This document shows, in pieces, positions 17,795-48,027 of a stretch of 64,000 nt of DNA (its first letter is position 1; each line of letters begins with the position of its first letter). Source of the stretch: Desulfobacterales bacterium (lineage in GTDB: Bacteria; Desulfobacterota; Desulfobacteria; Desulfobacterales; G963662235); assembly GCA_963662235.1 (NCBI GenBank), contig OY759308.1, positions 182,109-246,108 of the forward strand, given 5' to 3'. The notes below the pieces were generated by a model. The model did no database searches and was not told the origin of the DNA. It was given only the letters and a program-made list of their open reading frames with translations. The translations under genes were made by a program, and so were the position numbers.

Positions 17795-17798
17795 AAGG

Positions 17799-18950: not shown

Positions 18951-19189
18951 AGCTATCTCCTTTTCTTATTTTTTTCATATCACCTTATATAAGTGCTACT
19001 TTTGAACATTAAATAACAATAAAAATATTTTTTACAATTTAAATTGTTGTTATTATTGGTTTTGTGTCAAAACAAGGAATAACTTTTTAAAAAAAATGGT
19101 GTTTTAAAGGAAGAGAAAAGCGAATAGTTTTAGTGTTTTAGCTCGCTCCCAAGCTCTTAGAGACTGGAACACAATAGTTTTTACAAAAA

Positions 19190-30300: not shown

Positions 30301-33300
30301 TCTTTTTGCTCATTTTTTTTGCTTAGAAAGGCAGACATACTTCCTAAAACCATATGTCCGTGATTGCCACCAATTCCATTCACATTGCTTGCTAAATAAA
30401 AATTGTCTTCTATCTTTTTTAAATTTGGATTTGCTTTTAAAATAGAATTTTTTTCTACGATGGAGTTCTCTTTCGAATATGCAAAGTTTGGCAAAATAGC
30501 TTTATTCTTTGTCATAAGAAGTAATTTGTTTAGAACAACAGCAGGATTGGCCGCTTTAAAATATGCAAATTGTGATTTTGTGTTGCCGAAAAAAATGTCG
30601 TTTGGAAAACTTGTTTCAATTGCTTGTTTTTCGACTAAATCAAATAATGGGTTAGATACTCCAAAAACATCAATATATTTTATCTCATTTTTTTTTATAT
30701 TTATTTTTTCGTAACAAGTTTCAATTGCTTTGCTATATGCTTCTTCAGAAGGAGATAAAAGATGCTTTGGGACACTTGAAGAAAAAGAGATACCTTTTAT
30801 TTCACCAATGATATCAAGATTGTTTTCGCAAGCTTTTTTATAAGTTGTTAAAATTTGAACAGCAGCACCTTCTCCCATAACATATCCTTCTGCTCTTTTA
30901 TCAAAAAAATAGTTGTCGTGCGTACTCAAAAGAGAAAGCCTTTTAAAAGCTATAATAACAGCAGGATATAAATTTGCATCAACTCCTCCTGTTATTGCAA
31001 AATCGAGCTGTTTTGTTTTAAGGTTTTCCATGGCTGTTTCAAAAGCAAAGGATGAAGAAGCACAAGAAGCATCTATAACAAAATTTTTGCCATTACAGTT
31101 AAAAAAATTGGCAACTCTTCCAGATACAAGATTTGATAAAAGACCTGTTGTTGTGTCTTCGGTGGTTGGTGAAAATCTTTTTTTAAGATTTGTAAGAAGC
31201 TTGTCTGCTATAATGTTTTTGTTTTCGGCATCAAATTCTTTTATAAATTTTTCTATAAGAGGAAGCCTAACTCTTAAAATATTTTCCGATTGATGTGTCC
31301 CTGATATTGTTCCAAATATAACTCCAATATTATTTCCATATCCAAAAAAATCTTCCATTTTTGCTTGGGATATTGCCTCAGATGTTGCATCAAGTGCAAA
31401 TTTTTGTGCATTGTCTATAAACTTTGCAGTAAATGGTGGAATTTTATATTTTGTGTTATTAAATTTATAATCGTCTATAATTCCTGCTTTGATATTTGGA
31501 ATGTGATATCCAGAAAGTTTATCTTCTTTTGCATAATAGTCGTTATGGAATTTGGAAGAAGGCATTGTATCTGATATTGATGTTTTGCCACTTTTTAGCT
31601 TTTCCCAAAAATCAGAAGAATTTTTCACATTTGGTAAAAGAGTTCCCATTCCAACAGCAACAATTCTGTCTTCATTAAAATCGTAAGATAAATCATTAAA
31701 AATTTGTCTTCTTGTTTTTTTATAAGCATCGGTAAATTCTTCAATAATTGAATGATAGTTAATTCCACCAAAACCATATGAGCTTATTGCAGATGCAAGA
31801 GGCATGTTTTTATTCCATTCTTTTGCTTCTTCAATAATATAGAAGGGAGAATCTTGTAAGTTATGGCTTCTGCTTAATTCTTCAAAAAGACCATTTGGAG
31901 GGAGTGTTTTATTTTTTATTGCAAGGATTGCTTTTATAAGCCCTGCCATGCCAGCCCCACCAAGAAGATGCCCTATTTGTGACTTTATTGAACTTATTCC
32001 GATTTTATTATTTGATTGATTGTAAACAGCTTTAAGGGCTTCAATTTCTGTTATATCTCCCATAATTGTTGAAGTTCCGTGTGCTTCAATAAAATCAATA
32101 TTGTTTAAATCAAAATCGTCTCTTAAATTTTTGATACATCGTTTAAGAGCAAGAACTTGCCCATTTTGGTTTGGTGCAGCTATGGCTTTCCCTTTTCCAT
32201 CAGAGCTTGCACCTAATGCTTTTATTAAAGCATAAATTTTATCTTTGTCTCTTATGGCATCTTTTGCCCTTTTTAAGATAACAACTCCAGCTCCTTCTCC
32301 CATCACAAAACCACTTGCTCTTTTGTCAAAGGGGTATGAGCCTATGTTTGATAATGCTCCAAGTTTGCAAAAACCAACAAAGGGCTCTGGAGCAAGATGA
32401 GAATTGACTCCTCCAATAATTGCCAAATCGCTTTTCCCCGATAAGAGTTCTTTTATTCCACAATCTAAAGCTGCAAAGCTTGTTGCACAAGCTGCATCAA
32501 CTGTGTAGTTTATGCCTTCTGCTCCTAAGTGATGAGCAATTCTGCTTGCTTCTATGTTTAGTGCAACAGTATGAACAGCTTCATATTTTGAACCATCTGA
32601 AAATTTTTCTTTTAAATAGTTTTTCAATTCTTTCTTTTTTTCATCACTTAAAGATTGAAACTCGTCTATTTGGTCTAAATAATACAAGATTTCAGGATAG
32701 CTATATTTGAAATGCAAATTGTTGTTTGTTTCATTGCCAAGGCAGCTTGCAACGATAACAGAGGTGTTTTTTCTTAATTTTTTTTTAAGTTTTGTGTCTT
32801 TTTCAATTATCTTTGCATCAAGTGCTGCTTGGAGGGCTGCTTCTAAAACTAATTGTTGGCTTCTTGAAAGATTTTTTCCTTTATTTTCTTCATAGCCATA
32901 TTTTTTCTCGTCAAATGTAAAAACATTATCTTTTATTACGCCTGCAAGAGAGGTGTAGGTTTTGTCTTCTTTTTTTTTATCTTCATCATAAAAAAGGTGA
33001 AAGTTGCAAAAACGCTCACTGTTATCGTGATTTATATCTATAATTGAATATTTTTTATTTACTATGTTGTTCCAAAAGGCTTCTTTGTCTTTTGCATCTG
33101 GATAAATGCACCCAATTCCAACTATTGCTATTTCATCATTTATGATATTTTTTTCATTCGTAAGAGCTTCTAACGAATTTAGATTTTTGTGAAGGGATTC
33201 TTTGTTGTCAAAATAGTTTTGATGAAGCTCTTTTATAGGCACTGTATAATCTGAAAAAACAACAGAATCGCCTGCCATAAAGTTGCCTTTTTCAAATTGT

Positions 33301-35213
33301 TCTTTTTCGTTAAATTGCTTTAATTCTTTAAAAACATTGTTTTCAAAAATAGGCTGAAATCCTTTTGAGGCAATAAGTAGTGCCCCAATGTTGTCTTGTT
33401 CAAATTCTTTTTTCCTTTTGCCCAAGTCTATGTTGTTTCTGATTCTGTCGTTTTCTCTTTTTAATATATTTTGAGTAAAAGGTGTTTTTATAACTCTTGA
33501 GGGCAAACCAACAGAACTTCCGATTAAAGAAGTTTCTTTGTTTTCTAAAACAACTTTTTGATAAACTGGTTTTATGGCAAGAGATTCTAATATCTCTTTG
33601 GTTGCAAGATAGGCTGTGCCAACTTGAATTCCTATTTTAAAACCTTTTTCATAAAGAAAGGCACTCATTCCGCTTATGAAAAAAGAGGCTGATTTGGTAG
33701 ATATTCCTCCTGCAAAAATAAGAGTGCTTCTGTTAGGGGTTATTTGATTTTCTAAAATTGTTTCAATTGCAAGCTCCCATAGTGTGAAGCTGCTTAATGC
33801 TCCAATATGACCGCCTGCTTCTTTTCCTTCAAATATGAAATTTGTACACTCGTTTTTTACAGCATTTTTCAAAAATGATGGAGTTGGTGTGTGTAGATAG
33901 GTTTTAGTTCCAAGCTCTTCTAATTTTTTTACATTGGCAGGAGAGCCTGCTGCAAAGAGAGCAAAGGGGACTTTGTGTTTTTTTATTATTTTGATATGGC
34001 TTTCTAAAGTTGGATTTAAGGCTTCGATTCCTATCATACCTGCACCAAAAGATTTTAACTTTTCTTCGTTTTTACCTTCTGTAATAATTTTATCTGCCAA
34101 ATTTGAAGGCAAGTTTCCTAATGCAAAGAAAGGCAAAGCTCCATTTTCAAAAACAGATAAGGCAAAATTTGCATTATCGCTTATATTTGCCATAGGTCCT
34201 TGAATGAGTGGGTATTTTGTTTTGTGCTCTTTTGCCAGCGTGCTATTTTCTTGCAACGGGTCAAAATCGTCTATTAGTGCTAATTTTTCGCAAGTTTCGC
34301 TAAATAGATAATGGACTATATCTTTTAGCTTTTTTGATTTTTTTACAAAATGTTTTGCAAAAACAGCATCTTGTCCAAGATAGAAAAGGGATTGCAGGGG
34401 TTCTGTGGAATTATCATTTAATTTTTTTATATTTGATTTTATAACTTCATAAAAAGCATTTTTTGCATCAGGATTGCCAATTAGTTCTAATTCTTTGAGT
34501 TTAAGCTCTTTTGTGATTTTTGTTCCGGGCTTTGAAAAAAATCTGTAATTATACCCAAGGTTTTGTCCTAAAACTTCTGTGTTGTTGTCTTCTAAGTTTT
34601 CGATTAATTTTTTAAAATTTGAAGATAAAGGAGCTTCGTCTGCAAGAAAAAATTGAGAATCTAAAACAATTCCGCTTGCACCACTTGCAAAAATTCCTGC
34701 TGTTGTATGAATGCCAACTCCGCCTTGAACAAAAATTGGAAGTTTTGTTTTTTCTAAATAAGTTTGCATTAGCACAAAAGAAGAAAGACCAGCGCCCCTT
34801 CCTCCTGCCTCACTCCCTTTTATGATAAGAGCGTTTGGAGATATTTTGCCTAACTTTTTTTCAATTTCAATATCAATGGTTTCAATGAAAAAAGGATTTT
34901 TTATGTTTGCATCATCAAATCGCTCGATATCCTCTAATGAATCATAATAAAAAATTATGGCATCTAAATTTCTTATATTTTTTTCTTTTAAAAAATTTAT
35001 AACCTCTTTTTCTTTAAAATTTAATCTTAATCCAAAAAGATGATTTGCGTTTGAAAGCTTTGTAATTGTTTCTGTAATTTCATCACTATCTAAAAACTCA
35101 CAATCTAAAACAGGCAGTAAACCTGCATCATCAATGGCTCTAAAATATTTTTCATCAAAACAAAATGATAAACAAATTGCAGGTAATTTTGAATTTATCA
35201 CTCTTTTAAACAT
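24315..35213 (-). CDS. Single-polypeptide PUFA-synthase-like (secondary-lipid) type I FAS/PKS megasynthase: ER'-ER-KS-KS*(His-less)-AT-KS-ACP-ACP-KR-DH
   Basis: 3632 aa. Positions below were counted on the translation.
- NMO/PfaD-like domains: aa ~1-310 (IKGSEAGGRG, VQGGVGI) and aa ~333-560 (YPLIQGPMA, FEGKEAGGH, FAGGIS).
- KS1, aa ~693-1160: DAACATS (C909), EAHGTST, SQIGHLLG.
- KS2, aa ~1183-1625: DASCASS (C1384), but DVFGVSN and KSQFAYF replace the two His motifs.
- AT, aa ~1678-1965: GQGAQ, GHSIGE, GAFHS.
- KS3, aa ~2062-2565: GACAST, SHETYTP, GYTGHTLG.
- ACPs: serines in DLGIDSI at S2672 and S2775.
- KR, aa ~3063-3285: VTGGGSGIT, YTSAN.
- PKS-type DH, aa ~3340-3632: LKDHSKDDIPIFLG, DAMFQ. 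Confidence 0.85.
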   Translation of the reverse strand: MFKRVINSKLPAICLSFCFDEKYFRAIDDAGLLPVLDCEFLDSDEITETITKLSNANHLFGLRLNFKEKEVINFLKEKNIRNLDAIIFYYDSLEDIERFDDANIKNPFFIETIDIEIEKKLGKISPNALIIKGSEAGGRGAGLSSFVLMQTYLEKTKLPIFVQGGVGIHTTAGIFASGASGIVLDSQFFLADEAPLSSNFKKLIENLEDNNTEVLGQNLGYNYRFFSKPGTKITKELKLKELELIGNPDAKNAFYEVIKSNIKKLNDNSTEPLQSLFYLGQDAVFAKHFVKKSKKLKDIVHYLFSETCEKLALIDDFDPLQENSTLAKEHKTKYPLIQGPMANISDNANFALSVFENGALPFFALGNLPSNLADKIITEGKNEEKLKSFGAGMIGIEALNPTLESHIKIIKKHKVPFALFAAGSPANVKKLEELGTKTYLHTPTPSFLKNAVKNECTNFIFEGKEAGGHIGALSSFTLWELAIETILENQITPNRSTLIFAGGISTKSASFFISGMSAFLYEKGFKIGIQVGTAYLATKEILESLAIKPVYQKVVLENKETSLIGSSVGLPSRVIKTPFTQNILKRENDRIRNNIDLGKRKKEFEQDNIGALLIASKGFQPIFENNVFKELKQFNEKEQFEKGNFMAGDSVVFSDYTVPIKELHQNYFDNKESLHKNLNSLEALTNEKNIINDEIAIVGIGCIYPDAKDKEAFWNNIVNKKYSIIDINHDNSERFCNFHLFYDEDKKKEDKTYTSLAGVIKDNVFTFDEKKYGYEENKGKNLSRSQQLVLEAALQAALDAKIIEKDTKLKKKLRKNTSVIVASCLGNETNNNLHFKYSYPEILYYLDQIDEFQSLSDEKKKELKNYLKEKFSDGSKYEAVHTVALNIEASRIAHHLGAEGINYTVDAACATSFAALDCGIKELLSGKSDLAIIGGVNSHLAPEPFVGFCKLGALSNIGSYPFDKRASGFVMGEGAGVVILKRAKDAIRDKDKIYALIKALGASSDGKGKAIAAPNQNGQVLALKRCIKNLRDDFDLNNIDFIEAHGTSTIMGDITEIEALKAVYNQSNNKIGISSIKSQIGHLLGGAGMAGLIKAILAIKNKTLPPNGLFEELSRSHNLQDSPFYIIEEAKEWNKNMPLASAISSYGFGGINYHSIIEEFTDAYKKTRRQIFNDLSYDFNEDRIVAVGMGTLLPNVKNSSDFWEKLKSGKTSISDTMPSSKFHNDYYAKEDKLSGYHIPNIKAGIIDDYKFNNTKYKIPPFTAKFIDNAQKFALDATSEAISQAKMEDFFGYGNNIGVIFGTISGTHQSENILRVRLPLIEKFIKEFDAENKNIIADKLLTNLKKRFSPTTEDTTTGLLSNLVSGRVANFFNCNGKNFVIDASCASSSFAFETAMENLKTKQLDFAITGGVDANLYPAVIIAFKRLSLLSTHDNYFFDKRAEGYVMGEGAAVQILTTYKKACENNLDIIGEIKGISFSSSVPKHLLSPSEEAYSKAIETCYEKINIKKNEIKYIDVFGVSNPLFDLVEKQAIETSFPNDIFFGNTKSQFAYFKAANPAVVLNKLLLMTKNKAILPNFAYSKENSIVEKNSILKANPNLKKIEDNFYLASNVNGIGGNHGHMVLGSMSAFLSKKNEQKDNQEEEIFSPILQKTIDFDKTKKAVSTEPYIAKNQNHTKSNIIILLSGQGAQSAYMMQELYKEYPLIRTTMDKGEEIFKKSRGYSLLDLMFSDNNEINLTENTQPSIFLSSASIYEHLRQTKNIIPNYFVGHSIGEYTALFCNGILDFESSMSLVLKRADLMKECTSKTQGKIMVLFVDERQSEKLIRQSSIEVFIANKNSKKQTAISGTKENIDKFCNFLKSIKKPFIKLKLSGAFHSNLFDDAAFKMKQHLDDYIFSNTANYSKIISNVTGKPYPNDIKKVKELLSKQIASPVEFIKSIEYVYEAQKSLFLEIGPNKLLGTLLKDINIAYYDSIPAVDVKVGQLKSFDNFLNYIDKIHKTPFEEKKETLSFDKDEKYIKSHAFEDFKKQNQEVLDKVLYKEFIQHKKEDALASMEKYNFYDGKIVISGVSIGLPGKARKVFSSDNFEKILNGTNFIEPISEDDKKKITEKKINRLFKQADGNARFVEIENQEDVIQLAGQLGFFDLNDEYGVEFKYDSAMALAVAAGIEALKDANIPLVMNYKQTSLGKQIPEGFALPKEMQGKTGVIVSSAFPNNETVMGEMNRFYYHKFYVEPYEEFENIYYHLMESVKDSNIKKQITNWFFKVKERNKEYPSYQFDRNFAANMCPLGSAHLARFIKAQGPNILLNGACASTTQAIGVANDWIRCGRCERVIIIGGDNVTSSIQNQWVGSAFLSLGAATIKKEVEEAAKPFDAERNGTILGAGAVGLVIEKEECLRKRGLNGQAEILGSYLGNSGFHTFNIDVNHLAVQMEKFVKRVEKNHNLNKDYYTKKLIFMSHETYTPKRGGSADAEINALRKAFPNHYPQIAIANTKGYTGHTLGAGIEDAVLVKALQKGQIPPIANLINIEDNFKDLCLNKKLYDDFEYGIHTAAGFGSHFAFLMLKKLENGTIQNNNVYYKWLQNISGSQGPVLTITNNALCVEAHGSKISKEDCDEKTNTQKETKQENKIATTSENSGNQIETIKQIIAKQTGYETDMLEDDLDMEADLGIDSIKQVEIFGEIAEKFNFKVPEDLKLVELNTIKKLTDFIIAKTSSTQTLTSNEPKEVEQKKDTTTLKADENQIETIKQIIAKQTGYETDMLEDDLDMEADLGIDSIKQVEIFGEIAEKFNFKVPEDLKLVELNTIKKLTNFILNETSEKQEKIANTQQKEDERAQTDTQKNVKRFLIKPVTKKLEGKTKTLKNKTLLVSFDNYGFADEFAKKTDANIIEIGKNNFELFENKNNIQEELQKIKNSNIDGFIHFAPINYYFEKTQNPIKLSKAIKSFFLIVKTLQNSINKEDGIIASCAFNSVVIPYIEKNIDINPVFAGISGMLKSINKEFKNTSCKMVDFANSSNVEKTINLFINEIQTETNELEVAYKDGQRFVLKLEESKIQENTNIIKQNDTILVTGGGSGITFEILKNIGKEYKTKFIILGRSNIEEKKELQNIKDDKLISFVMQENPNMKPVEASRQAAKIKRAREVKKNIEELRSLNIDTIYKPVSVIDAKQLDEFASDIKNIDGIIHAAGVEESNFIEKKELDSFSKVFDTKILGAFNLLKSFANYRFFIAFSSVTAKFGNEGQTDYTSANDMLGKIVQKEASLNPSKQYKIYDWTAWNKIGMATKSSVEYVLKEKKISFLEPKDGIKFFLDDLLDDNIEAVFTGIDYEFDINRLLAQEKLMPFLDKISFIDENKAKFKRKLSLSYDLFLKDHSKDDIPIFLGATGIEAMAEAAFYLLNSKNKKLVAVSDFSIPYGIKILKEKDKEIEIEAVLNDNLCKCKITSFFQKKKIFNETLHYEGSFYFDNNKLPSKKIALPEFNKLQINDNLASLIYHPKRLFMEGLFKTIEEISHYDGKLLISKIMDKSDKEFFKNEKEPKFLSNVVIVDAMFQTGGIFEFLKTDMLVLPLKIANMKFYSYPKKNEEYFCITEKMSDNENTNTYKLILTDKSGNVFIEIDNFEMIKISKIDKKYSIKL
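26787..27303. repeat. Tandem duplication (309-bp period) encoding the two ACP domains
   Basis: 26787-26995 and 27096-27303 are nearly identical at the nucleotide level. The linkers between them differ. Confidence 0.9.
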
Positions 35214-35429: not shown

Positions 35430-35479
35430 AATGGAATTATCTGATAAGATCAAAAAGGGCAAAGAGAGGACTTGACCCC
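35430..35479 (+). mobile_element. Right-end fragment (50 bp) of the IS-like element, abutting the truncated recombinase gene
   Basis: AATGGAATTATCTGATAAGATCAAAAAGGGCAAAGAGAGGACTTGACCCC aligns with 40895-40953, including the terminal repeat. Confidence 0.75.
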
Positions 35480-35886
35480 ATTTATTGATTCTGAAAGAAT
35501 GGTAATAAATATAAAGGGTGCAAAGGGCATGAAAGATAGAATATCTTTGCTTTCGAAGCATTTGCTTGAATTATTACGAAATTACTTCAAAGCATATAAA
35601 CCTAAAAAATATCTCTTTGAAGGTCAAAATGGAGGTAAATATTTGCCAACCAGTGTGGCAAATATTTTAAAGAAAGCGGTACTGAAAGCTGGAATCTGTA
35701 AAACCGTGACTACCACATATGCTACGCCACAGTTTTGCAACTCATCTTCTTGAACAAGGCACTGATTTAAGATATATTCAGGATTTGTTGGGGCATAATA
35801 GTTCAAAAACGACTGAAATTTATACTCATGTATCAAAAAAGGCAATTGATAAGATTAGAAACCCAGTCAATGATTTTTTTGATTGA
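35480..35886 (+). pseudogene. Tyrosine recombinase (XerC/D-like), 5'-truncated and frameshifted C-terminal fragment
   Basis: ...IDSERMVINIKGAKGMKDRISLLSKHLLELLRNYFKAYKPKKYLFEGQNGGKYLPTSVANILKKAVLKAGI.KTVT / frameshift near 35710 / [56 protein letters not shown]. The catalytic-region motifs KDR, H.LRH, LLGH and IYTHV are present. Confidence 0.85.
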
Positions 35887-35980
35887 GGAGATCAAAATGA
35901 TAAAAGAAAAATATATACAATTGTGCTTAGCCCGCCAGTTTGGAGAAATAAACACAATAGAGTTTACACAATCGTTAGCG
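35887..35980 (+). other. attI-like junction, copy 1, ending in core site GTTAGCG (35974-35980)
   Basis: This 94-bp segment follows the recombinase stop and is duplicated at 42278-42371. Strong similarity between the copies falls off just past the GTTAG core. Confidence 0.6.
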
Positions 35981-36047
35981 CCAAGTATAGAAAAAACCGT
36001 GCAACAGTAAATAATAATTGAACCAATATCAGGTAATAAATAAACAA

Positions 36048-39000
36048 ATGAATATAGAATGGAATACATTACGAGCATTTAACGGCGATGTTAAAAATGG
36101 ATTTGAAGAACTTGTTTGTCAATTAGCAAGAGCAGAACAAATTTTAAACAAATCTAAATTCATTAGAGTTGCTGCACCTGACGGTGGAGTTGAAGCGTAT
36201 TGTATCCTTTCTGATAATACAGAATATGGTTGGCAAGCCAAGTTTTTTGCGTCAATGGGCGATTCACAATGGACGCAACTTGATAAATCATTTAAAACAG
36301 CCTTTGCAAAGCACCCTGATTTGGTTAAGTATTACATCTGTATTCCATTAGATAGACAAGATCCGAGAATAACAATTACAAAGGGAAACCGTAAAGGGCA
36401 ACAAGTGAATCACTTTATGGATAAGTGGAACGCGAAAGTAACAGAATGGGAAGCATTTTCAAAATCAAACAACAGAACTATTGAATTTGAATTTTGGGGT
36501 AATTCAGAAATCTTTGAACGCTTAAGCAAAAAAGAAAACGAAGGGAAACTTTACTATTGGTTTGGCAAGGAAGAATTTTCTGATGAATGGTTCAAACAAA
36601 AACTTGATGAGAATATTAAAAATCTTGACAAACGCTACACCCCTGAACTGAATTTTGATTTACCTATTGCCAAGATATTTGACGGAATTAGCAGAGATAC
36701 TTATTTCAACGACCAATTCAATTCATATTTTGATGATTTACTTAGGCATTTTAGAAAAGCTGTTACTCATATTAAAAAAGCAAAGGTAAAAAACTATATT
36801 GATAAAATCAATTCAATAGTCACAACATTCAGACAACAATGTGAGCAAATTGATTTTGCTGAAATAAGTATTATTGACAATATTGGTTTGATATCACTGT
36901 TAGAAAGTGTCAGGAAAATTATTAACGATTTAATTCAAAAATTATATGAAATTGATTTCGCACTCAAAAAAGAAAAGAAAGAAAAAAGTAAATACGAAAG
37001 CGATACAAATAAATTTGGTTGGGATATAGAGCATTTCAGAAAATTGAATAGTTCAATTTATGAGTTTATTAATTTTCTAAATAGCACAACGGTTCTTTTG
37101 TCAAATAACCCTTTTATGCTTTTAACAGGGGAAGCAGGAATTGGAAAATCACATTTACTTGCTGATGTTGCAGTAAAAAGAAATAAACGAAATCAATTCT
37201 CAATTTTATTGCTTGGTCAACATTTCACAGAGGAAGAACCTTGGAGTCAAATCAAAAAACAACTTCAATTAAATTGTGAAAGAGATACATTTCTTTCTTC
37301 GCTAAATGCAAAAGCTGAAACAACACAGAGCAGAATTTTAATTCTGATAGATGCAATAAATGAAGGAAAGGGAAAAGAGTTGTGGAAAAATTATATTGCA
37401 GGTTTCATTACCGCAGTAAAAAAATTTCCAAACATAGGTGTGGTTTTTAGTATTAGAACTTCTTATGAAAAACTTTTAATTCCTAATCCCTTAAAGGAAA
37501 AGGATGAAATTTTAAAAGTCATTCATTATGGTTTCTCATACCACGAATACGAAGCATCAAAACGTTTTTTTGAAAATTTTGGTATTAAACAACCAAGTAT
37601 TCCTTTGCTTCACCCTGAGTTTTCCAATCCGCTATTCCTAAAATTATTTTGCGAGGGATTAAGTAAAAAAGGATTGCACGTAATACCTGACGGTTACGAG
37701 GGCATTTCTACCGTCCTTAATTTTTATCTTGAAGCTATTAACAATACAGTTTCGGAAAAACACAAATTGCCTGAAAACTTAAATCTTACTCAAAAAGTTG
37801 TAAAAAAAATCGCAAGTCAAATTGCTGATACTGATAATACTTACATAAAGTTTGATAATGCGTATAGTACTGTTACTCAATTTGCCAAAGACAACTCAAT
37901 TACCGAACCTGCTCAATTTTTTGAGGATTTAATACGGGAAGGACTTCTTACTCAAAACGTGTATTGGGAAAAAGGTGGAAATCCTTTTAACGGTGTGTAT
38001 ATTTCGTATGAAAGATTCAGTGACCATTTGGTTTGTGCTTACTTGTTGGAAAATCATTTTGACAAAAAGAATCCAACAAGCTCTTTTGCTGTCGGTAATA
38101 AACTACATAGATTGCTTGAAGACCAATATAAATCATATTACAACAAAGGTATTATTGAGGCTCTTTCAATTCAATTACCTGAATTGGCAAACATAGAACT
38201 ATTTGAAGCTGCACCTCACGCAAAGGAATTTAAAATTGTGGCACAGGCATTTGTTGAAAGCATTATTTGGAGAAAAAAAGAAACAATCAATGAGAAACTA
38301 AAAGATTACATAAATGAAGTCGTAATTCAAAAACACGACTTGCATGATGATTTTATTAGCACAATTCTTTTAATTACATCACAGCCGAAACACTATTTCA
38401 ATAGCGATTTCCTTCACAATCATTTGATGAAATTCAGTATGCCTGATAGAGATTCTTGGTGGACACCTTTTATTCATCATCAATACCCAAGCTATTCAGA
38501 TGAAATCACATCTATTCAACGAATGATTGATTGGGCTTGGACAGATGATAAACGAGAGAATATTTCTGACGAATCAATTCGCTTAATGTGTCAAACTTTG
38601 TTTTGGTTTACAACAAGCACCAACAGGGCGTTAAGGGATTCTACAACAAAAGCAATAATTTGTCTTTTAGAAGAACGAATAAGCGTTTTGATACAACTCA
38701 TTAAAACATTTGAACAGGTTAATGACCCTTATGTTTTGCAACGAGTATTTGCGGTTGCGTTTGGTTGTGCTGTTAGAACGAGCAAAACTGAATCTTTAAA
38801 AGAATTAGGAAACTGCATTTATGAATCGGTTTTCAATACGAAAAAAGTAATTCCTGACATTTTGTTAAGGGATTACGCAAGAGGAATTGTTGACTACGCA
38901 GTTTTCAAAGGTATCAAGTTTGAGTTTAATTTAAAGAAAATAAAACCTCCTTTCAAAAGCGATTTGCCAACTTCATTTCCAAGTAATGAAGATATTGAGA

Positions 39001-40316
39001 AGTACGAATATGACTATAAAGCAAAAGAATTCAAAGATTATTATTGGAGTTTGAATTCAATTATTAGTTCTATGAAAACAAATGTCGGAGGTCAGATGTA
39101 TGGTGATTTTGGTAGATATACATTTGAAAGTGCCTTTGATGGTTGGAGAGTGAACGCACAGCTATTAAGCAATTTGGCAGTAAAATGGATTGTTGAGAAA
39201 TATGGCTATGATGTAGAAAAACATGGAAAGTTCGATAGAAAGATTCCATGTGATGGAAGACATTCTCATATGACAGAACGAATTGGGAAAAAATATCAAT
39301 GGATTGCTTTTTATGAATTGCTTGCAAGAGTTTCAGACAACATTCCGTTTTATGAATATTCATATAGCCAAAATGCAAAGCCTGTTGACTATAAAGGACC
39401 TTGGGAGCCGTATGTTAGAGATATTGACCCAACAATTACAATAAAAGGAAATCTTGAAAATAAAAATGAAAAATTTTGGTGGAATCTTGTTGATTACAAC
39501 AATTGGAACCTTCCAAACAAAGAATGGATTTTCAAAACTGATGACTTACCAAATCCTTTGGGTATGATAAGTGTGTTTGACAAAGACGGTATTGAATGGT
39601 TGGTACTTGAAATTCTCAAATCATGGACAGAACCTGCAGACATCGGAGAAGATAAATATGAAAATCCGCATAAAGATTTATGGTATCAAATTAAAAGTTA
39701 TATAACTAATAAAAAAGACCATAAAAAAATTTTGAAGTGGTCAAAAGAAAAAAACTTTATGGGGCGTTGGATGCCAGAATCGACAAATAGGTATCAAATG
39801 TTTAGCAGAGAATATTATTGGTCAGCAGCTAATGAAACATTTAGAGACCCTTATTATAGTGGTGAAAGTTGGTCTAAAATTCACGACAACGAAACACATC
39901 AATTAATTGGCAAAGTTGCCGTAACAACCATTGATTATTTGTGGGAAGAAGAATTTGACGCTTCAAAAGAATCTACGATTAGTTTTTACAAACCCACAGA
40001 AATTCTTTTTAATCTTCTTGATTTACAATATTCAAAAATTGAAGGTCAACTTTTGAATAAAGATGGACAAATGATTTGCTTTGACCCTTGTGCAACATAC
40101 CCAACACATTCGTGCCTTGTGGTAAGAAAAAACGACTTGGTTCAAAAATTAGAAGACAATAACTTGAATATTTTTTGGACTGTCTTAGGCGAAAAACTAA
40201 TTATTGGTGGAGACCATTCAAAACGTAACGAATGGATAGGGCGATTAAATATTTCAGGAGTTATACATTACGAAAAAGAATTACTAAAACATATTCCATA
40301 TTATATTGAAATATGA
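36048..40316 (+). CDS. Avs-like antiviral STAND NTPase with N-terminal Mrr-like PD-(D/E)XK nuclease domain (cassette 1)
   Basis: 1422 aa counted from the ATG at 36048. The N-terminal FEELVCQLARAE...VAAPDGGVEAYC...GWQAKFF fits the Mrr-cat pattern D..(Q/E)xK. The P-loop is LLTGEAGIGKSHLLAD (nt 37128-37151) and Walker B is ILILIDAINEG. A ~900-aa C-terminal region carries no recognisable repeats and is the putative sensor. Confidence 0.65.
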   Translation: MNIEWNTLRAFNGDVKNGFEELVCQLARAEQILNKSKFIRVAAPDGGVEAYCILSDNTEYGWQAKFFASMGDSQWTQLDKSFKTAFAKHPDLVKYYICIPLDRQDPRITITKGNRKGQQVNHFMDKWNAKVTEWEAFSKSNNRTIEFEFWGNSEIFERLSKKENEGKLYYWFGKEEFSDEWFKQKLDENIKNLDKRYTPELNFDLPIAKIFDGISRDTYFNDQFNSYFDDLLRHFRKAVTHIKKAKVKNYIDKINSIVTTFRQQCEQIDFAEISIIDNIGLISLLESVRKIINDLIQKLYEIDFALKKEKKEKSKYESDTNKFGWDIEHFRKLNSSIYEFINFLNSTTVLLSNNPFMLLTGEAGIGKSHLLADVAVKRNKRNQFSILLLGQHFTEEEPWSQIKKQLQLNCERDTFLSSLNAKAETTQSRILILIDAINEGKGKELWKNYIAGFITAVKKFPNIGVVFSIRTSYEKLLIPNPLKEKDEILKVIHYGFSYHEYEASKRFFENFGIKQPSIPLLHPEFSNPLFLKLFCEGLSKKGLHVIPDGYEGISTVLNFYLEAINNTVSEKHKLPENLNLTQKVVKKIASQIADTDNTYIKFDNAYSTVTQFAKDNSITEPAQFFEDLIREGLLTQNVYWEKGGNPFNGVYISYERFSDHLVCAYLLENHFDKKNPTSSFAVGNKLHRLLEDQYKSYYNKGIIEALSIQLPELANIELFEAAPHAKEFKIVAQAFVESIIWRKKETINEKLKDYINEVVIQKHDLHDDFISTILLITSQPKHYFNSDFLHNHLMKFSMPDRDSWWTPFIHHQYPSYSDEITSIQRMIDWAWTDDKRENISDESIRLMCQTLFWFTTSTNRALRDSTTKAIICLLEERISVLIQLIKTFEQVNDPYVLQRVFAVAFGCAVRTSKTESLKELGNCIYESVFNTKKVIPDILLRDYARGIVDYAVFKGIKFEFNLKKIKPPFKSDLPTSFPSNEDIEKYEYDYKAKEFKDYYWSLNSIISSMKTNVGGQMYGDFGRYTFESAFDGWRVNAQLLSNLAVKWIVEKYGYDVEKHGKFDRKIPCDGRHSHMTERIGKKYQWIAFYELLARVSDNIPFYEYSYSQNAKPVDYKGPWEPYVRDIDPTITIKGNLENKNEKFWWNLVDYNNWNLPNKEWIFKTDDLPNPLGMISVFDKDGIEWLVLEILKSWTEPADIGEDKYENPHKDLWYQIKSYITNKKDHKKILKWSKEKNFMGRWMPESTNRYQMFSREYYWSAANETFRDPYYSGESWSKIHDNETHQLIGKVAVTTIDYLWEEEFDASKESTISFYKPTEILFNLLDLQYSKIEGQLLNKDGQMICFDPCATYPTHSCLVVRKNDLVQKLEDNNLNIFWTVLGEKLIIGGDHSKRNEWIGRLNISGVIHYEKELLKHIPYYIEI

Positions 40317-40328
40317 AAGAAAACCAGG

Positions 40329-40459
40329 CGGTAACATCGTATATAAAACATTTGGCAGTCAGTGGGTTATTGAGCTTTCTACTCCGTATCAAAAGTACTT
40401 GTAATTTGACATGAAAGTGTTTCTAAATGCCAAACATTTCATATACGTAACCGTTAGAG
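40329..40459 (+). other. attC-like site of cassette 1 (131 bp)
   Basis: Layout:
- inverse core CGGTAAC (40329-35), then a 3-nt spacer;
- L'' GTATATAAAACATTTGGCA;
- L' TGCCAAACATTTCATATAC (40428-46);
- spacer GTAACC;
- core GTTAGAG (40453-59).
GGCGgTAAC is the reverse complement (one mismatch) of the cassette start GTTAgCGCC at 35974. Confidence 0.75.
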
Positions 40460-40466: not shown

Positions 40467-40953
40467 AAATAAAGGGGTCAAGTCCTCTCTTGGCTCTTTA
40501 ACTGTTTTTTAATAAAAAATGACATGTCCAGACCATTAAGAATACAATATCCAGATGCATAGTATCACGTAATGAATCGTGGTAGATGAGGTGAAAAGAT
40601 ATTTTTGTCACCGGATGATTTTGAAGATATTCCTGAAACCAAAAACCTTGCACCGGATACTGATAAAATAATATACCATGTATGTAAAGCATACAATGTT
40701 GAAGAATCTATGCTGTATATATCCCGGAGAGGTTGCTTTAATGAACCAAGAAATGTCTGTATCTATTTAGTAAGATATTTAAGGGGTGATACTTTAAAGG
40801 AAACCGGAGTGCTTTTTGGAATTAAAAAACATAGCACTGTCAGCAGTATAATAGATAGGGTCAAGCTTAATATAAAATCCAGTCAAAAATTTAAAAAACG
40901 GATAATGGAATTATCTGATAAGATCAAAAAGGGTCAAGAGAGGACTTGACCTC
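40467..40953 (+). mobile_element. IS-like element, internally deleted non-autonomous copy with decayed Y1-HUH/DnaA_C-like transposase
   Basis: ~20-bp TIRs: GGGGTCAAGTCCTCTCTTGGC (40474-) and CAAGAGAGGACTTGACCTC (-40953). The ORF remnant 40524-40949 reads MSRPLRIQYPDA*YHVMNRGR*GEKIFLS. It is then fused directly to the C-terminal DnaA_C-like HTH part (...RNVCIYLVRYLRGDTLKETGVLFGIKKHSTVSSIIDRV...). Confidence 0.8.
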
Positions 40954-41063
40954 TTCAATTACAAATCATTTCAGCGGACAGCTAATGCTCGCCACTGGAT
41001 TTCACGTCATATGGGAATAAAAATATAGATTGACGATGCCTCCTATTTGTCTTATGTTTAATT

Positions 41064-41348
41064 ATGAAAATATTCAAATGGAATTCAGAAAAAAACGAAA
41101 TTCTTGCAACTAATAGAGGAATTACGTTTGATGAAATAGTTCAAAGAATAAAATCTGGAGCTAAAGTAATCGAAACAGATCATCCAAATAAAGAGAAATA
41201 TCCAAATCAAAAAATAATGATTGTCGATGTGGATGGATATGCTTACTTAGTTCCTTTTGTGATTGATGGTGATGAATACTTTCTTAAAACAATCATTCCT
41301 AGCAGGAAAGCAACAAAGAAATATCTTGAAGGTAAAAATAATGGATAA
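41064..41348 (+). CDS. brnT: BrnT-family toxin (DUF497)
   Basis: FKWNSEKNEILATNRGITFDEIV...YLVPFVIDGDEYFLKTIIPSRKATKKY matches the BrnT pattern (F.WD..KN...HGI.F.E ... RIISAR.AT..E...Y). Confidence 0.75.
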   Translation: MKIFKWNSEKNEILATNRGITFDEIVQRIKSGAKVIETDHPNKEKYPNQKIMIVDVDGYAYLVPFVIDGDEYFLKTIIPSRKATKKYLEGKNNG

Positions 41349-41622
41349 AAAACATAATAAAATAATTCTTGACGATTATGAACAGGAAATACTGGAAGCA
41401 TATGAAAACGGTAAGCTTAGTCCATCGAAATCAGAAACAGACTTTAAGACTATTGCCCAAAATACATTAAAAAAGAATCGAAAAATTAATATAAGAATTT
41501 CAGAAAATGACCTTTCGGCATTACAAAGGAAAGCTGCCAGAGAGGGAATTCCGTATCAAACTTTAATTGGTAGTATACTTCACAAATACGCAAGTGGATA
41601 TATTAAAGAAACTGTTTTTTAA
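41341..41622 (+). CDS. brnA: BrnA-like antitoxin (RHH/CopG-type C-terminus)
   Basis: The ATG at 41341 overlaps the brnT stop. ...KKNRKINIRISENDLSALQRKAAREGIPYQTLIGSILHKYASG is typical of BrnA-type antitoxins. Confidence 0.7.
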   Translation: MDKKHNKIILDDYEQEILEAYENGKLSPSKSETDFKTIAQNTLKKNRKINIRISENDLSALQRKAAREGIPYQTLIGSILHKYASGYIKETVF

Positions 41623-41646: not shown

Positions 41647-42015
41647 AAATAAAGGGGTCAAGTCCTCTCTTGGCTCTTTAGCTGTTTTTTAATAAAAAAT
41701 GATATGTCCAGACCATTAAGAATACAATATCCAGATGCCTGGTATCATGTAATAAATCGTGGTAGACGAGGTGAAAAGATATTTTTGTCAAAGGAAGATT
41801 ATCAATCTTTTATTATTCTTCTTAAAGAGCTTAACGAAGTATATAATGTTAAAATAGTAGCTTATTGCCTCATGGAAAACCATTACCACCTCCTGATAAA
41901 AACACCTGATGCAAATCTTTCCAGGGCAATGAGACATTTAAATGGTGTCTACACACAGCGATATAATAAACGTCACAATTATGATGGGCAGCTTTTTAGA
42001 GGGCGTTATAAATCT
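41647..42015 (+). pseudogene. IS-like element left part with the N-terminal half of the Y1-HUH transposase, truncated by a MITE
   Basis: The left TIR GGGGTCAAGTCCTCTCTTGGC is at 41654. The ORF from 41704 reads MSRPLRIQYPDAWYHVINRGRRGEKIF...CLMENHYHLLIKTPDANLSRAMRHLNGVYTQRYNKRHNYDGQLFRGRYKS (HUH motif HYH). It ends at the MITE boundary at 42016. Confidence 0.8.
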
Positions 42016-42211
42016 GAGACCTTTGAACAATGTCATTTTTGTTCAATTTGAGGGTAAAGTAGTATATTAATACTTCAAGCCCGAAAATCGGGCAAAACAT
42101 GGCAAGCCTTTTAATATAAGCTTTTTAAAAGAAAAAGTAATGTTTTGTTTTTAAAGTTCAAAGTTCAAATTTAACAAATTTTTTAAAAATTAGCGTTTGT
42201 TCAAAGGTCTC
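42016..42211 (+). mobile_element. MITE, subfamily 2, full copy (196 bp) at a rearrangement junction (no TSD)
   Basis: GAGACCTTTGAACAATG...GCGTTTGTTCAAAGGTCTC. The left flank is transposase coding sequence (aaatct). The right flank is the recombinase 3' end (atactc). Confidence 0.8.
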
Positions 42212-42371
42212 ATACTCATGTATCAAAAAAAGGCAATTGATAAGATTAGAAACCCAGTCGATGATTTTTTTGATTGAGGAGATCAAAATGATAAAAGAAA
42301 AATATATACAATTGTGCTTAGCCCACCAGTTTGGAGGAATAAACACAATAGAGGTTACACAATCGTTAGGG
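42212..42371 (+). pseudogene. Second copy of the recombinase 3' end (last ~20 codons, frameshifted) plus attI-like junction ending in core GTTAGGG (42365-42371)
   Basis: ATACTCATGTATCAAAAAAAGGCAATTGATAAGATTAGAAACCCAGTCGATGATTTTTTTGATTGA... aligns with 35822-35980. Strong similarity falls off just past the GTTAG core. Confidence 0.75.
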
Positions 42372-42414: not shown

Positions 42415-45096
42415 ATGGAATATATAAGAAAAAATATTGAACGTAAAATTAACTTTCATGAGTACAATAATAATCAGGAAGAGTTAAAGGTTCTTTATCA
42501 AGCCTATTTAGAGTATTTGATGATATACACTCTTGGATATTTGTGGAATAAGAACTTTTCTATTTGTGATTCTGAAACAAAATCCTACATATTAGACATT
42601 ATACAAAGACCTTCTATTGGTGATATTGAAATGGCTTGTAGGAAATTGGATGTGAATAAAGAAATTTTTAAAAATAGAGCTCTATCTCGTAGGTTCTCGA
42701 AATATCCTCAACTAAGAAATGAAAAAATAGGACATGGATATGTTTTCTCTGACTCTTCTTCTGAATTTGTAGGAGAGTTAAAAGAGTTTTGTGAAAACAT
42801 AAAAAATTCTGAACATACAATTTTTAAAGAGGATATTGATATAATAAAGGTGCTGAAACAGGAGAATGGTGCTTATAAAGGAATTACCTATAAGTCTGAT
42901 GGGTCTGATTATTACCCATGGAGTTTCCCTGTTGGTTCAAAAAAATTTGAAATAGGTGATATATATGGATATCATTCGAATTGTAAATATTTTAAGATAT
43001 CTCCTTTTGTAGAAATCCAAAATGAAAGTGAGTATTACACTTTTAGCTCAATATATGAACCACTATCTGGAAAATGTAAATACAACCGACTATTAAAAAG
43101 TGGAGTAGAATTTTTTGAGAATATTGAGTTCTGCAATTTGGATATTGAATCCGATAATGTAAAAAGAAAAACCAAGAATGGAACAATAATTAGTTTATTT
43201 CAGAAAAACTATACAAAATTTATAGAAACTTCCATTAAAAATAAAGTACTCGACTTTTTATTAAAATCCAAGCATTCGGTTACAGCTACAGTTTGGGGAC
43301 ATGGAGGTGTCGGGAAAACCGCAACAATTCAAAAAATATGTGATGAATTAGGTGCTGGCAATAATCGATATTTTGACTATATAATATTTACGACAGCTAA
43401 GGATAGATTCTACAACTATTTAACAGGTAATATTGAAGAATTAAACGAAAGGATTAACTCATGTGAAGAGTTGATTAAGTCAATTAATCAGGTAATTGTG
43501 AATGAGCCTGTCTTGAATATTGATAATATTACAGGCTTTCAACAAAAAATGTTGGTTATAATAGATGACTTTGAGACATTTGACGATGATGAAAAGTTGA
43601 AAATAGCTGATTTTATCAGAAAACTTGATGCATCAAAACACAAAGTACTAATTACAACAAGAGCAAATATTGTAATAGGTGAGGAAATTAAAACAAACGA
43701 ATTATCTTCTGATGAAACTTCACTGTTTTTAAAACAGGTATTTGCAAATGAGCTTGAAGAGCAAATATCAATAAAACGACATATTGAAGTTTTAGGAAAA
43801 CCCGAAATTAAAGATAAAGTACATTGGTTAACCAGTGGTAGACCTTTGTTTATATATCAATTGGCCTTTATTATTGCTCAAAAAGGTAATGTTGAAGACG
43901 CTTTGGAATTTGATATTAAAAAGTCTGATAATGCAATTGAGTTTCTATATGGAAGAATCTACAATTATTTATCAGATTTGGCAAAAGATATTTTTGTTGC
44001 CATAAGCTTGTTAGTAACAGAAAATGATTTGAGTAATGTGATAAAAAAATTATCCTACATACTAAATATTGAAGGAAATCAAGATGCTTTTGATAGTGCA
44101 ATAAGTGAATTAGTTAAATTGAAAATACTTGAAGTTAAAGAGGATAATTTCTTTTACATATATTCCAAAGAAATCCTTACTATCATGTCCCTGATGTATA
44201 ATAAAAGACCTGATAGTTTTAAAGGGAATTGTAATAGACGTCTCTTGCAAATCAGCAGAGATAAAAAGTTAGATAACGAACAAGCTCTATTGCAGTTTGC
44301 AAATACAAATCGTTATTCAAAGAATGAAGAAGAAGTTGTTAGTTCATATAAACAAATTTTGAATCGGGGAAATGCCCCAAAAAAAGTAAGACTACAGGCG
44401 ATTTTAAACTTAACGGCTTATCTCGTAATTGACCGTGGCAAAAGAGATTCTGCATTAAATATTTTAGAAGAATATTTTTCAAAATTCAATGATAAAGGAC
44501 AATATATCAAAATGATAGCCACATATTATTGGGCTAATGCTTCAGATGACCATAAGGAAAAATCGATTAAAATTTTAGGTGATTTTCTTTCTTCTCATCG
44601 TAACCTAAACGTTGATATAAATCTTGAACTATTAGGATTGCTTCTTACTTATAAAACGATTTTTGCTATTTCTAAGAAAGAAAGATTAAAAGATAGTTTG
44701 CATTATGATGAGATTTCGGGAACAGATTTTTCTAAGGCAAACGAGGCTTTAAAACAAGATTATAGGAATATTATTAAGTATCACGGTTGGCCTCTTTTTA
44801 ATTTTGTTGATTCTATTGATTTTAGTTCAATTTCTTCTGGTTCTAGACAAAATATTGTTACAGGTTTTTATCAGTTTTCAGAACTTTTTACAAGACTTGG
44901 AGATTATAAAAATGCAGCAAAAATTTGCGTATTTGCAATTGATAAATTCCCTGATAATTTTCAGAAGTTATTTCGAGCTAAATTAGGTCGTATTAAAAGT
45001 TTTAACTATAAACCATATGACAAACCTAAATCAAAAGAGATGTCTGATTTTGGTTTAATACTATCTAATGCAATTAATAAAAAGCCCAGCCCCTAA
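42415..45096 (+). CDS. STAND (NB-ARC-like) NTPase with an unassigned ~280-aa N-terminal domain and a helical-repeat C-terminus (cassette 3)
   Basis: 893 aa. Walker A is VWGHGGVGKTATIQKI (nt 43297-43320) and Walker B is MLVIIDDFETFDD. The C-terminal ~350 aa look helical/TPR-like. The N-terminus contains LRNEKIGHG (R-x5-H). Confidence 0.65.
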   Translation: MEYIRKNIERKINFHEYNNNQEELKVLYQAYLEYLMIYTLGYLWNKNFSICDSETKSYILDIIQRPSIGDIEMACRKLDVNKEIFKNRALSRRFSKYPQLRNEKIGHGYVFSDSSSEFVGELKEFCENIKNSEHTIFKEDIDIIKVLKQENGAYKGITYKSDGSDYYPWSFPVGSKKFEIGDIYGYHSNCKYFKISPFVEIQNESEYYTFSSIYEPLSGKCKYNRLLKSGVEFFENIEFCNLDIESDNVKRKTKNGTIISLFQKNYTKFIETSIKNKVLDFLLKSKHSVTATVWGHGGVGKTATIQKICDELGAGNNRYFDYIIFTTAKDRFYNYLTGNIEELNERINSCEELIKSINQVIVNEPVLNIDNITGFQQKMLVIIDDFETFDDDEKLKIADFIRKLDASKHKVLITTRANIVIGEEIKTNELSSDETSLFLKQVFANELEEQISIKRHIEVLGKPEIKDKVHWLTSGRPLFIYQLAFIIAQKGNVEDALEFDIKKSDNAIEFLYGRIYNYLSDLAKDIFVAISLLVTENDLSNVIKKLSYILNIEGNQDAFDSAISELVKLKILEVKEDNFFYIYSKEILTIMSLMYNKRPDSFKGNCNRRLLQISRDKKLDNEQALLQFANTNRYSKNEEEVVSSYKQILNRGNAPKKVRLQAILNLTAYLVIDRGKRDSALNILEEYFSKFNDKGQYIKMIATYYWANASDDHKEKSIKILGDFLSSHRNLNVDINLELLGLLLTYKTIFAISKKERLKDSLHYDEISGTDFSKANEALKQDYRNIIKYHGWPLFNFVDSIDFSSISSGSRQNIVTGFYQFSELFTRLGDYKNAAKICVFAIDKFPDNFQKLFRAKLGRIKSFNYKPYDKPKSKEMSDFGLILSNAINKKPSP

Positions 45097-45222
45097 CACT
45101 TTGTATAAGTAATGGCAGGCAAAGTGCTACATATCAAAATTTGTAGCCCGCTCAAACTGCGTGGCGGTTTGACAGGAAAGTACCACGCAATCTGCTACTA
45201 CTCATACAATTTACCGTTGGGC
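45091..45222 (+). other. attC-like site of cassette 3 (132 bp)
   Basis: Layout:
- inverse core CCCTAAC (45091-97), overlapping the TAA stop, then spacer ACT;
- L'' TTGTATAAGTA;
- L' TACTCATACAA;
- spacer TTTACC;
- core GTTGGGC (45216-22).
GCCCCTAAC is the exact reverse complement of the cassette start GTTAGGGGC at 42365. Confidence 0.8.
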
Positions 45223-46542: not shown

Positions 46543-46673
46543 GCCCAACACGCAATAAAAAACATAGGGTGGAAAGTGCTAAATTTGAACGACATAACAT
46601 TTAAGAAACGGTTTGGTAACTTGATAGATAAGTGCTTCGAAGCGTCTTCCGTTTCTTATTGCCACCGTTAGTT
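46543..46673 (+). other. attC-like site of cassette 4 (131 bp)
   Basis: Layout:
- inverse core GCCCAAC (46543-49), then spacer ACG;
- L'' CAATAAAAAAC;
- L' GTTTCTTATTG;
- spacer CCACC;
- core GTTAGTT (46667-73).
GTGCCCAAC is the exact reverse complement of the cassette start GTTGGGCAC at 45216. Confidence 0.8.
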
Positions 46674-47579: not shown

Positions 47580-47703
47580 CAGTGCATATATTTATTGGGG
47601 GTTGAATCGCTAATTTCAAAGTAATTACACTAAATTAGCTCCTTAACGTGGGATAAAGAATTGCTTCGAAATCCCCCAACAAAACATATGCTTAACGTTA
47701 GAG
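47574..47703 (+). other. attC-like site of cassette 5 (130 bp)
   Basis: Layout:
- inverse core AGCTAAC (47574-80), overlapping the TAA stop, then spacer AGT;
- L'' GCATATATTTATTGGGGG;
- L' CCCCCAACAAAACATATGC;
- spacer TTAAC;
- core GTTAGAG (47697-703).
AACAgCTAAC is the reverse complement (one mismatch) of the cassette start GTTAGtTGTT at 46667. Confidence 0.75.
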
Positions 47704-47731
47704 AAATAAAGGGGTCGAGTCCTCTCTTGAC
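47704..47731 (+). mobile_element. Left-end fragment of the IS-like element, immediately after the attC core site
   Basis: AAATAAAGGGGTCGAGTCCTCTCTTGAC matches the left ends at 40467 and 41647. Similarity is lost after ~28 nt. Confidence 0.65.
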
Positions 47732-47763
47732 TCAAAGTCGTACAAACATAGTACAAAATCGTA

Positions 47764-48027
47764 AATCGTAGGGGCGTATTGCCATACGCCCTCTCAACAA
47801 TGCAATCACCATCAAAAACAATTGGTGCAGTTTGTTCGTGGATTTTAATCTACTGTAACAAAACAGATAAATCAATTGATACAAACACTCAGTCAAAAAT
47901 TGTGGTAACGCAATTATTATGAACATATCATACGCAATGAAAAAATGAGCATGGGCGTATAGCAATACGCCCCTACGAAAAAACAAATTGTACGGAAATG
48001 ATTGAATATTGCAGGAAGACCTTTAGG
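47764..48027 (+). pseudogene. Decayed RayT-type transposase relic, copy 2 (uninterrupted; empty site for the 21278 MITE)
   Basis: Collinear with 21122-21277 plus 21480-21586. It shares the same in-frame TAA stops and carries one extra frameshift. It is bounded by the same GGGCGTAT..ATACGCCC hairpins. Confidence 0.7.

Follow-up and report, generated by a model that had tools for sequence, protein, structure and literature searches.

EcAvs2 forms a tetramer with terminase and ATP (PMC13601566). KpAvs2 has a tripartite plan with an N-terminal Mrr-family endonuclease; it degrades DNA non-specifically and causes abortive infection, and K71A and K337A abolish its defence, for which the nuclease lysine and the Walker A lysine are needed (PMC11564622). 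Here we describe an Avs2 gene in 64,000 nucleotides of DNA from a Desulfobacterales bacterium (assembly GCA_963662235.1, contig OY759308.1, positions 182,109 to 246,108 of the forward strand), and this whole stretch is called the window. The gene fills an integron-type cassette of 4.48 kb, which has clearly moved between genomes and is found in the window and in three other Bacteroidota genomes.

The window protein shares with EcAvs2 (PDB 9o4e) the helical extension, the STAND ATPase, the TPR domain and the C-terminal sensor, and it keeps Walker A and B, R1132, E1362, E1364 and E1444. The effectors are unrelated: EcAvs2 carries an uncharacterised, non-enzymatic-looking domain where the window protein has a predicted PD-(D/E)xK nuclease. 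In addition, the EcAvs2 segment 967-1109 is about 85 amino acids (aa) longer, and T1128, R1130 and E1462 are not kept in the window protein. KpAvs2, compared by description only, is built on the same tripartite plan. In structure, the N-terminal domain comes closest to the nuclease of EcAvs4 (8dgf), with GWQ(A/S)K in register but a sequence identity of only 17-19 %; the remainder of EcAvs4 is a portal sensor and belongs to a different family from Avs2.

Integron cassettes are known to carry defence systems, which are described as small, 'streamlined' and of at most two genes (10.1101/2024.07.02.601686). In Vibrio cholerae, recombination products were absent for a cassette flanked by attC sites that lie 4 kb from each other, and capture was negatively correlated with cassette size (10.64898/2026.03.17.712381). 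Published surveys attribute the small size of cassette-borne systems to the limit that cassette size sets on recombination. According to IntegronFinder 2.0, integrons are extremely rare in Bacteroidetes. The systems reported by Darracq et al. (10.1101/2024.07.02.601686) and Kieffer et al. (10.1101/2024.07.02.601719) resemble the present locus in their single-gene antiphage cargo, their attC-type hairpin and an array with toxin-antitoxin and nuclease-type candidates. They differ in that the reported systems are small, whereas the cassette described here holds a full-length gene of 4.3 kb, in that the host clade here is Bacteroidota, and in that the recombinase here is Xer-like, co-oriented and under the IntI cut-off. 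Defence genes in cassettes are not new as a principle, but an Avs2 cassette of 4.48 kb that moved between Bacteroidota genera lies at the unusual end of the range.

Identity and domain organization of the Avs2 protein

An uninterrupted open reading frame (ORF) extends from 36018 to 40316 on the + strand, and the ATG at 36048 gives a protein of 1422 aa. Ortholog proteins elsewhere likewise start with MNIEWN, which matches this ATG. The protein scored 1426.6 bits against the NCBIfam equivalog NF041813 ('AVAST type 2 anti-phage system protein Avs2') and so passed its cut-off of 1000. Six PADLOC Avs2 models matched at E <= 6e-190, the curated Avs2 models down to E = 0, and PDLC02162 aligned end to end (1435.6 bits, aa 1-1409 on profile positions 1-1360 of 1379). 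The only relative in the PDB was chain A of 9o4e, 'Avs2' (E = 7.1e-261), with aa 177-990 and 1049-1412 aligned. This entry appears to be the EcAvs2-terminase structure obtained by cryo-electron microscopy in PMC13601566, because the accession is cited once there and the numbering of T1128, R1130 and R1132 matches the chain. With the whole protein as query, Pfam gave only sub-threshold P-loop matches (NACHT 1.9e-4 and NB-ARC 3.6e-3, both at aa 353-442; AAA_22 was also weak). Judged from its sequence, the protein is an intact, ordinary Avs2 (AVAST type 2) and need not be left unassigned as 'Avs-like'. The family is well known, standard annotation tools already recognise it by name, and the protein adds a new member to it. 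A transcription-regulator STAND protein of the MalT/AfsR type was also considered and was rejected, because the equivalog-level Avs2 matches exclude it.

The ratio of nonsynonymous to synonymous substitution rates (dN/dS) was 0.09-0.18, overall and in each domain, against four orthologs. These come from Bacteroidetes bacterium GWA2_31_9 (L001, 95 % identity), Lunatimonas lonarensis (L002, 88 %), Dyadobacter tibetensis (L003, 87 %) and locus L004 (83 %). The gene is therefore under purifying selection, which indicates that it is functional. The KpAvs2 operon also encodes a radical-SAM protein (Avap1) and a DUF6375 protein (Avap2); neither domain was matched among the neighbouring ORFs scanned, and the gene therefore looks like a stand-alone system.

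The nucleoside triphosphatase (NTPase) core carries Walker A GEAGIGKS (aa 361-368) and Walker B ILILIDAINEG (aa 430-440), which align with GKAGIGKS and VLVFIDAINEG of EcAvs2, and HD1 and WHD come after the nucleotide-binding core. In EcAvs2, part of the interface with terminase is formed by the helical extension that lies between the effector and the ATPase (PMC13601566). About 980 aa lie downstream of Walker B. The stretch at aa 991-1048 faces the unaligned EcAvs2 chain 967-1109, which is about 85 aa longer, and the C-terminal sensor alone aligned with EcAvs2 at E = 1.7e-100 (43.8 % identity over aa 1049-1412). By this homology, the C-terminal region is assigned to the Avs2 TPR domain and C-terminal sensor.

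Since the PDB and NCBIfam alignments begin only at aa 177-190, aa 1-176 make up a module of their own. With aa 1-190 as query, 65 homologs were retrieved, and an alignment was built on 38 of them. F19, L22, Q25, D45, G47, E49, Q63, K65, W75, Q77 and S81 are invariant in this alignment, and E20/E21 are conserved in at least 90 % of it. The AlphaFold2 model made from the 38 sequences (predicted local distance difference test, pLDDT, 88.1; predicted template modelling score, pTM, 0.82) has the order alpha-beta-beta-beta-alpha-beta, with helices at aa 15-29 and 72-88 and strands at aa 35-40, 50-54, 59-64 and 92-98. The top Foldseek match in the PDB was the Mrr-like nuclease of EcAvs4 (E 4.6e-4, probability 1.0, query-normalized template modelling score, TMq, 0.55), and the next matches, EcoO109I, Cap4, LmuA, McrC, Card1 and DdmD, are all PD-(D/E)xK nucleases. 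A profile search put GWQAK (Q63, K65) on EcAvs4 GWQSK at the same residue numbers with a marginal E of 0.04, and phmmer of the N-terminus against the PDB gave noise only. The predicted model supports a PD-(D/E)xK nuclease at the level of fold and active site. The term 'Mrr-like' is used here as a fold- and literature-level label and does not mean membership of Pfam Mrr_cat.

The initial annotation, which was made from the sequence without database searches, had proposed a nuclease-STAND-sensor protein of the Avs type, and PADLOC, NCBIfam and 9o4e all agree with it. Its ORF is present, as are all the motifs that it quoted, including FEELV (aa 19-23), PDGGVEAY (aa 44-51) and GWQAKFF (aa 61-67). 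The STAND core that it read from the Walker motifs aligns with EcAvs2, its large C-terminal stretch, given as about 900 aa, exists, and the single-gene status fits, as the scanned neighbours resemble no KpAvs2 accessory genes. PADLOC and a fold analysis of the N-terminus had been put forward as checks; the Avs2 models match over the full length, and the AlphaFold2 model carries a PD-(D/E)xK core. For the proposed Mrr-type nuclease, the fold and the invariant D/QxK residues held up, and the Pfam Mrr_cat family was not reached. The sensor, which the initial annotation could not assign to a known Avs family from sequence alone, is assignable by homology with 9o4e to the Avs2 TPR domain and C-terminal sensor.

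Cassette boundaries and the recombinase

A spacer of 130-133 nt lies behind each of the four + strand genes at 36-47.6 kb (40327-40459, 45090-45222, 46543-46673 and 47574-47703). Each spacer opens with an RYYYAAC-like box at or just past the stop codon and closes with (A/C)CGTTRRR. In the attC-like site of Avs2, GGCGGTAAC ... GTTAGAG, the heptamers are off the strict RYYYAAC/GTTRRRY consensus at one position. An unbiased scan of the 64-kb window ranked the four spacers as its strongest AAC...GTT hairpins, the energies of their arm duplexes being -16 to -26.5 kcal/mol. Other hairpins were mostly at -11 to -15 kcal/mol and as numerous as in shuffled sequence, apart from two unrelated sites at about -17 kcal/mol. 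A low-threshold scan gave 43 matches against 24-34 in shuffles, and only the top ones are meaningful. Among nine sites taken from four genomes, compensatory changes affect 10 of the 13 consensus pairs. Single-sequence folding was unconvincing for three of the four candidates (z = -0.9 to -1.3), so that attC is argued here from the rank of the hairpins within the window, the covariation and the comparative boundaries.

The unit of about 4.48 kb recurs with identical boundaries and unrelated flanks in the window, Bacteroidetes bacterium GWA2_31_9, L. lonarensis and D. tibetensis. In all four, homology starts exactly behind GTTA(C/G), with CGCCAAGT, and stops exactly behind CGTTA(G/C). The CGCC at the 5' end of the unit makes the inverted repeat of the 3' GGCGGTAAC complete, a layout that fits circularisation of the cassette at an attC site. 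The unit is in first position behind a recombinase 3' end in the window, GWA2_31_9 and D. tibetensis, and behind another attC in L. lonarensis. More distant copies at L004, L007 and L009 are without cassette flanks. An integron-type cassette of 4.48 kb has clearly moved between the genomes that share these boundaries. The large integron cassette of 4.5 kb that had been suggested from the window is thus borne out by the 4479-bp unit, the attC-like hairpins and the boundaries shared by four genomes.

The N-terminus of the recombinase is replaced by the end of an element like the repetitive extragenic palindromic (REP) sequences. NCBIfam gave matches of the XerA/XerC/XerD type over aa 5-129 of the remnant. 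Against the IntI model TIGR02249, the remnant reached 103 bits (cut-off 265), and only aa 62-134, the last 73 aa, were aligned. More complete relatives reached 153-207 bits in two stretches that skip model positions ~190-240, and they scored equally as XerA/XerC/XerD. These relatives are only fragments of at most 240 aa, and the lack of the IntI-specific insertion is therefore read from the split model alignments. No intact recombinase was found in any fetched locus. The recombinase lies upstream of the cassettes and on the same strand in the window, GWA2_31_9, D. tibetensis, L011 and L012, and is thus not divergent from the array. A co-oriented 'inverted-integrase' arrangement has been described for a minority of integrons. 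The platform is integron-like and is not a canonical integron, and its recombinase is a decayed, co-oriented Xer-like remnant. Of the integron context assumed in the initial annotation, the cassette with its attC stood, but there is no integrase at the IntI threshold and the recombinase is co-oriented.

Two metagenome-assembled genomes, L011 (7988-15017) and L012 (8001-15654), hold partial copies of recombinase relatives that are 81-90 % identical. Both are followed by same-strand arrays of toxin-antitoxin, PIN, beta-lactamase, ParB-methyltransferase, GmrSD and AAA_15/DUF3696 genes with attC-like sites of 129-130 nt. This suggests a widespread integron-like platform with a co-oriented recombinase of the Xer type.

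Proposed mode of action and alternative explanations

The product of the gene is, in our view, very likely a functional Avs2, which as a STAND NTPase with a nuclease effector would act on its own as a sensor for abortive infection. The homologs EcAvs2 and KpAvs2 are the basis for proposing the trigger (terminase), tetramerisation, DNA cleavage and abortive infection. Before infection the protein would be a latent monomer. When a tailed phage enters, the ATPase domain of its large terminase would be clamped jointly by helical extension, TPR domain and C-terminal sensor, probably with the aid of a 'bridging' ATP. The ATP-bound STAND module would then tetramerise and bring the four N-terminal domains together. 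The assembled Mrr-like PD-(D/E)xK nucleases would cut double-stranded DNA indiscriminately, and the cell would die before phage release.

The contact residues of EcAvs2 for terminase and the bridging ATP (PMC13601566) were mapped onto the window protein, and eight could be placed. Four are identical (R1132 as R1071, E1362 as E1300, E1364 as E1302 and E1444 as E1382) and one is conservative (W1266 as Y1204). Several results weigh against the proposed mode of action. The remaining three contacts differ (T1128 as C1068, R1130 as D1069 and E1462 as N1401), and D981 could not be mapped because it falls in the non-aligning segment that is about 85 aa shorter in the window protein; the bridging-ATP mode may therefore not be conserved. 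KpAvs2 also senses proteins other than terminase, such as Ksap1 (PMC11564622), so that the spectrum of triggers is not readable from sequence. With a threshold as loose as E <= 10, Pfam still gave no match on aa 1-190, and Mrr_cat (PF04471) was not matched at E <= 1 by any of the 38 aligned sequences. A scan for sigma-70 promoters and terminators, in which promoters of the Bacteroidota type are not modelled, did not rise above background (27 found, 24.9 expected). The replaced contacts and the shortened segment would fit an Avs2 that is naturally triggered by something other than, or in addition to, the large terminase, possibly another phage protein, and recognition of several unrelated proteins by KpAvs2 (for example Ksap1/Ksap2), with vs.8 for EcAvs2, points in the same direction (PMC11564622, PMC13601566). 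We regard this as unlikely, since terminase sensing is a family-wide property with redundant contacts: single mutations of T1128, R1132, D981 or E1364 left the defence of EcAvs2 unimpaired (PMC13601566), and E1362, E1364, E1444 and R1132 are conserved in the window protein. Terminase recognition is a reasonable expectation at the level of the family, but the interface may differ in detail, above all in the bridging ATP.

The truncated and frameshifted recombinase, together with the pseudogenes of REP-associated tyrosine transposase (RAYT) and DnaA_C type and the solo REP-like ends that flank the cassettes, could indicate that the gene is a stranded, non-functional relic in a decaying array. 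The unbroken ORF of 1422 aa, the intact catalytic and Walker residues and the dN/dS against four orthologs make this extremely improbable. It is also highly unlikely that the unit boundaries are not recombination sites and that the gene belongs to a generic defence island and was moved by a transposon or by homologous recombination. The absence of an intact integron integrase at any locus examined, the scores of the recombinase family under the IntI cut-off and the weak folding z-scores of three of the four sites are in favour of such a route. However, homology breaks sharply at the same GTTA/CGCC and CGTTA ends in four genomes with unrelated flanks, and the 5' end of the unit supplies the counterpart that the attC inverted repeat needs. 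In the window these four sites also rank as the top hairpins, and they show covariation; one copy is preceded by another attC, and three are behind a recombinase 3' end.

Features of the array and the window

The coordinates of the Avs2 cassette and of the recombinase platform are given in Table 1. Rfam and tRNA scans of the island found nothing.

Table 1. Features of the recombinase platform and the Avs2 cassette (window coordinates)
Feature	Coordinates	Strand	Basis
Tyrosine recombinase remnant, C-terminal ~133 aa, one frameshift	35487..35886	+	Pfam Phage_integrase
attI-like spacer, 88 nt	35887-35974	+	Adjoins recombinase remnant
Mobile unit (cassette), 4479 bp	35975..40453	+	Delimited assuming the canonical crossover between G and TT
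Avs2 coding sequence, 1422 aa plus stop	36048..40316	+	ORF list, PADLOC, NCBIfam, PDB 9o4e, dN/dS
N-terminal effector, aa 1-176, predicted PD-(D/E)xK (Mrr-like) nuclease, E20/E21, D45, Q63-A-K65	36048..36575	+	Conservation, AlphaFold2 model, Foldseek
Helical extension between effector and ATPase, about aa 177-350 (C-terminal boundary approximate)	36576..37097	+	Alignment with EcAvs2 from query aa 177 (chain aa 165) onwards
STAND NTPase nucleotide-binding core, about aa 351-441	37098..37370	+	Weak NACHT/NB-ARC/AAA_22 Pfam matches at aa 353-442; EcAvs2 alignment
Walker A	37128-37151	+	Motif search
Walker B	37335-37367	+	Motif search
Rest of STAND module and alpha-helical TPR-type sensor domain, about aa 442-1048	37371..39191	+	EcAvs2 alignment continuous to query aa 990
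Beta-rich C-terminal sensor, aa 1049-1412	39192..40283	+	43.8 % identical to EcAvs2 1110-1473
attC-like site of the Avs2 cassette, 133 nt, GGCGGTAAC ... ACCGTTAGAG	40327..40459	+	Hairpin rank, covariation, conservation

A second STAND NTPase of 893 aa is encoded at 42415-45096 (+). It matched Pfam NB-ARC (4e-11) and no PADLOC or NCBIfam family, and it may be an unclassified Avs-type sensor. Upstream of it, at 42213-42371, is a second recombinase 3' end with an attI-like segment, 96 % identical to 35822-35985, and its own attC is at 45090-45222. The duplicated attI is not explained by simple cassette insertion. The cassette at 45255-46535 (+) encodes a PDDEXK_4 nuclease that matched the PADLOC candidate system PDC-S26 (1.9e-26), with the attC-like site 46543-46673 behind it. 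The last cassette starts at 46632 (probable ATG 46695), ends at 47579 (+) and is followed by the attC-like site 47574-47703. It encodes a DUF6602 / NucC-like PD-DExK protein, and DUF6602 is a domain of the integron-borne 'Damona' system of V. cholerae.

The REP-like hairpin AAAGGGGTCAAGTCCTCTCTTGGC is present in five copies (35459-35482, 40471-40494, 40933-40956, 41651-41674 and 47708-47731), all of them in the island, against a chance expectation of none. They form the inverted ends of decayed copies of a Y1_Tnp (IS200/RAYT-like) and DnaA_C gene (40467-40960; 41647-42051). Twice the left end of this element lies at or within 7 nt of the GTTAGAG of an attC, with the element at 40467 behind the site that ends at 40459 and the element at 47704 behind the site that ends at 47703. 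This adjacency raises the idea that an HUH element might target folded attC sites. A toxin-antitoxin pair like BrnT/BrnA lies between two RAYT-like copies at 41064-41622 (+), without its own attC (BrnT_toxin 5e-6, CopG/BrnA 4e-6). Just past the last attC is a 41-nt inverted repeat (47751-47791 / 47953-47993) with arms that are 80 % complementary and 161 nt apart; it holds GGGGCGTAT(T/A)GC(C/A)ATACGCCC hairpins.

On the other side of the island, an ORF of 3632 aa at 24315-35213 (-) resembles a multidomain polyketide or polyunsaturated fatty acid (PUFA) synthase with tandem duplicated segments like acyl carrier protein (ACP). Its end is ~220 nt from the first REP-like end of the island. The G+C content is 41-43 % in a block at ~15000-19000 and ~30 % in the rest of the window; the block may contain foreign or highly expressed genes.

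Significance of the Avs2 cassette

The protein itself adds little, because Avs2 is well studied and its commonest form is the one with an Mrr-like nuclease. A tentative proposal, which we hold to be possible rather than probable, is that Avs2 travels as cargo in an integron-like system, not yet described, that occurs in Bacteroidota and neighbouring phyla. This system would use a compact, co-oriented Xer-type recombinase without the IntI-specific domain and attC sites of ~130 nt, and would mobilise cassettes of 4.5 kb. If this is true, the system would move cassettes well over the size at which mobility is lost in Vibrio. Avs2 in its full length would then circulate between genera as a cassette, as would, probably, the array's other STAND and nuclease systems. 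The significance of the locus may lie in the vehicle: a full-length STAND sensor is carried as a cassette, with an Xer-like recombinase beside it and other cassettes that are also defence-like. If the platform is active, it would widen the size and taxonomic range of the integron-type defence 'biobanks'.

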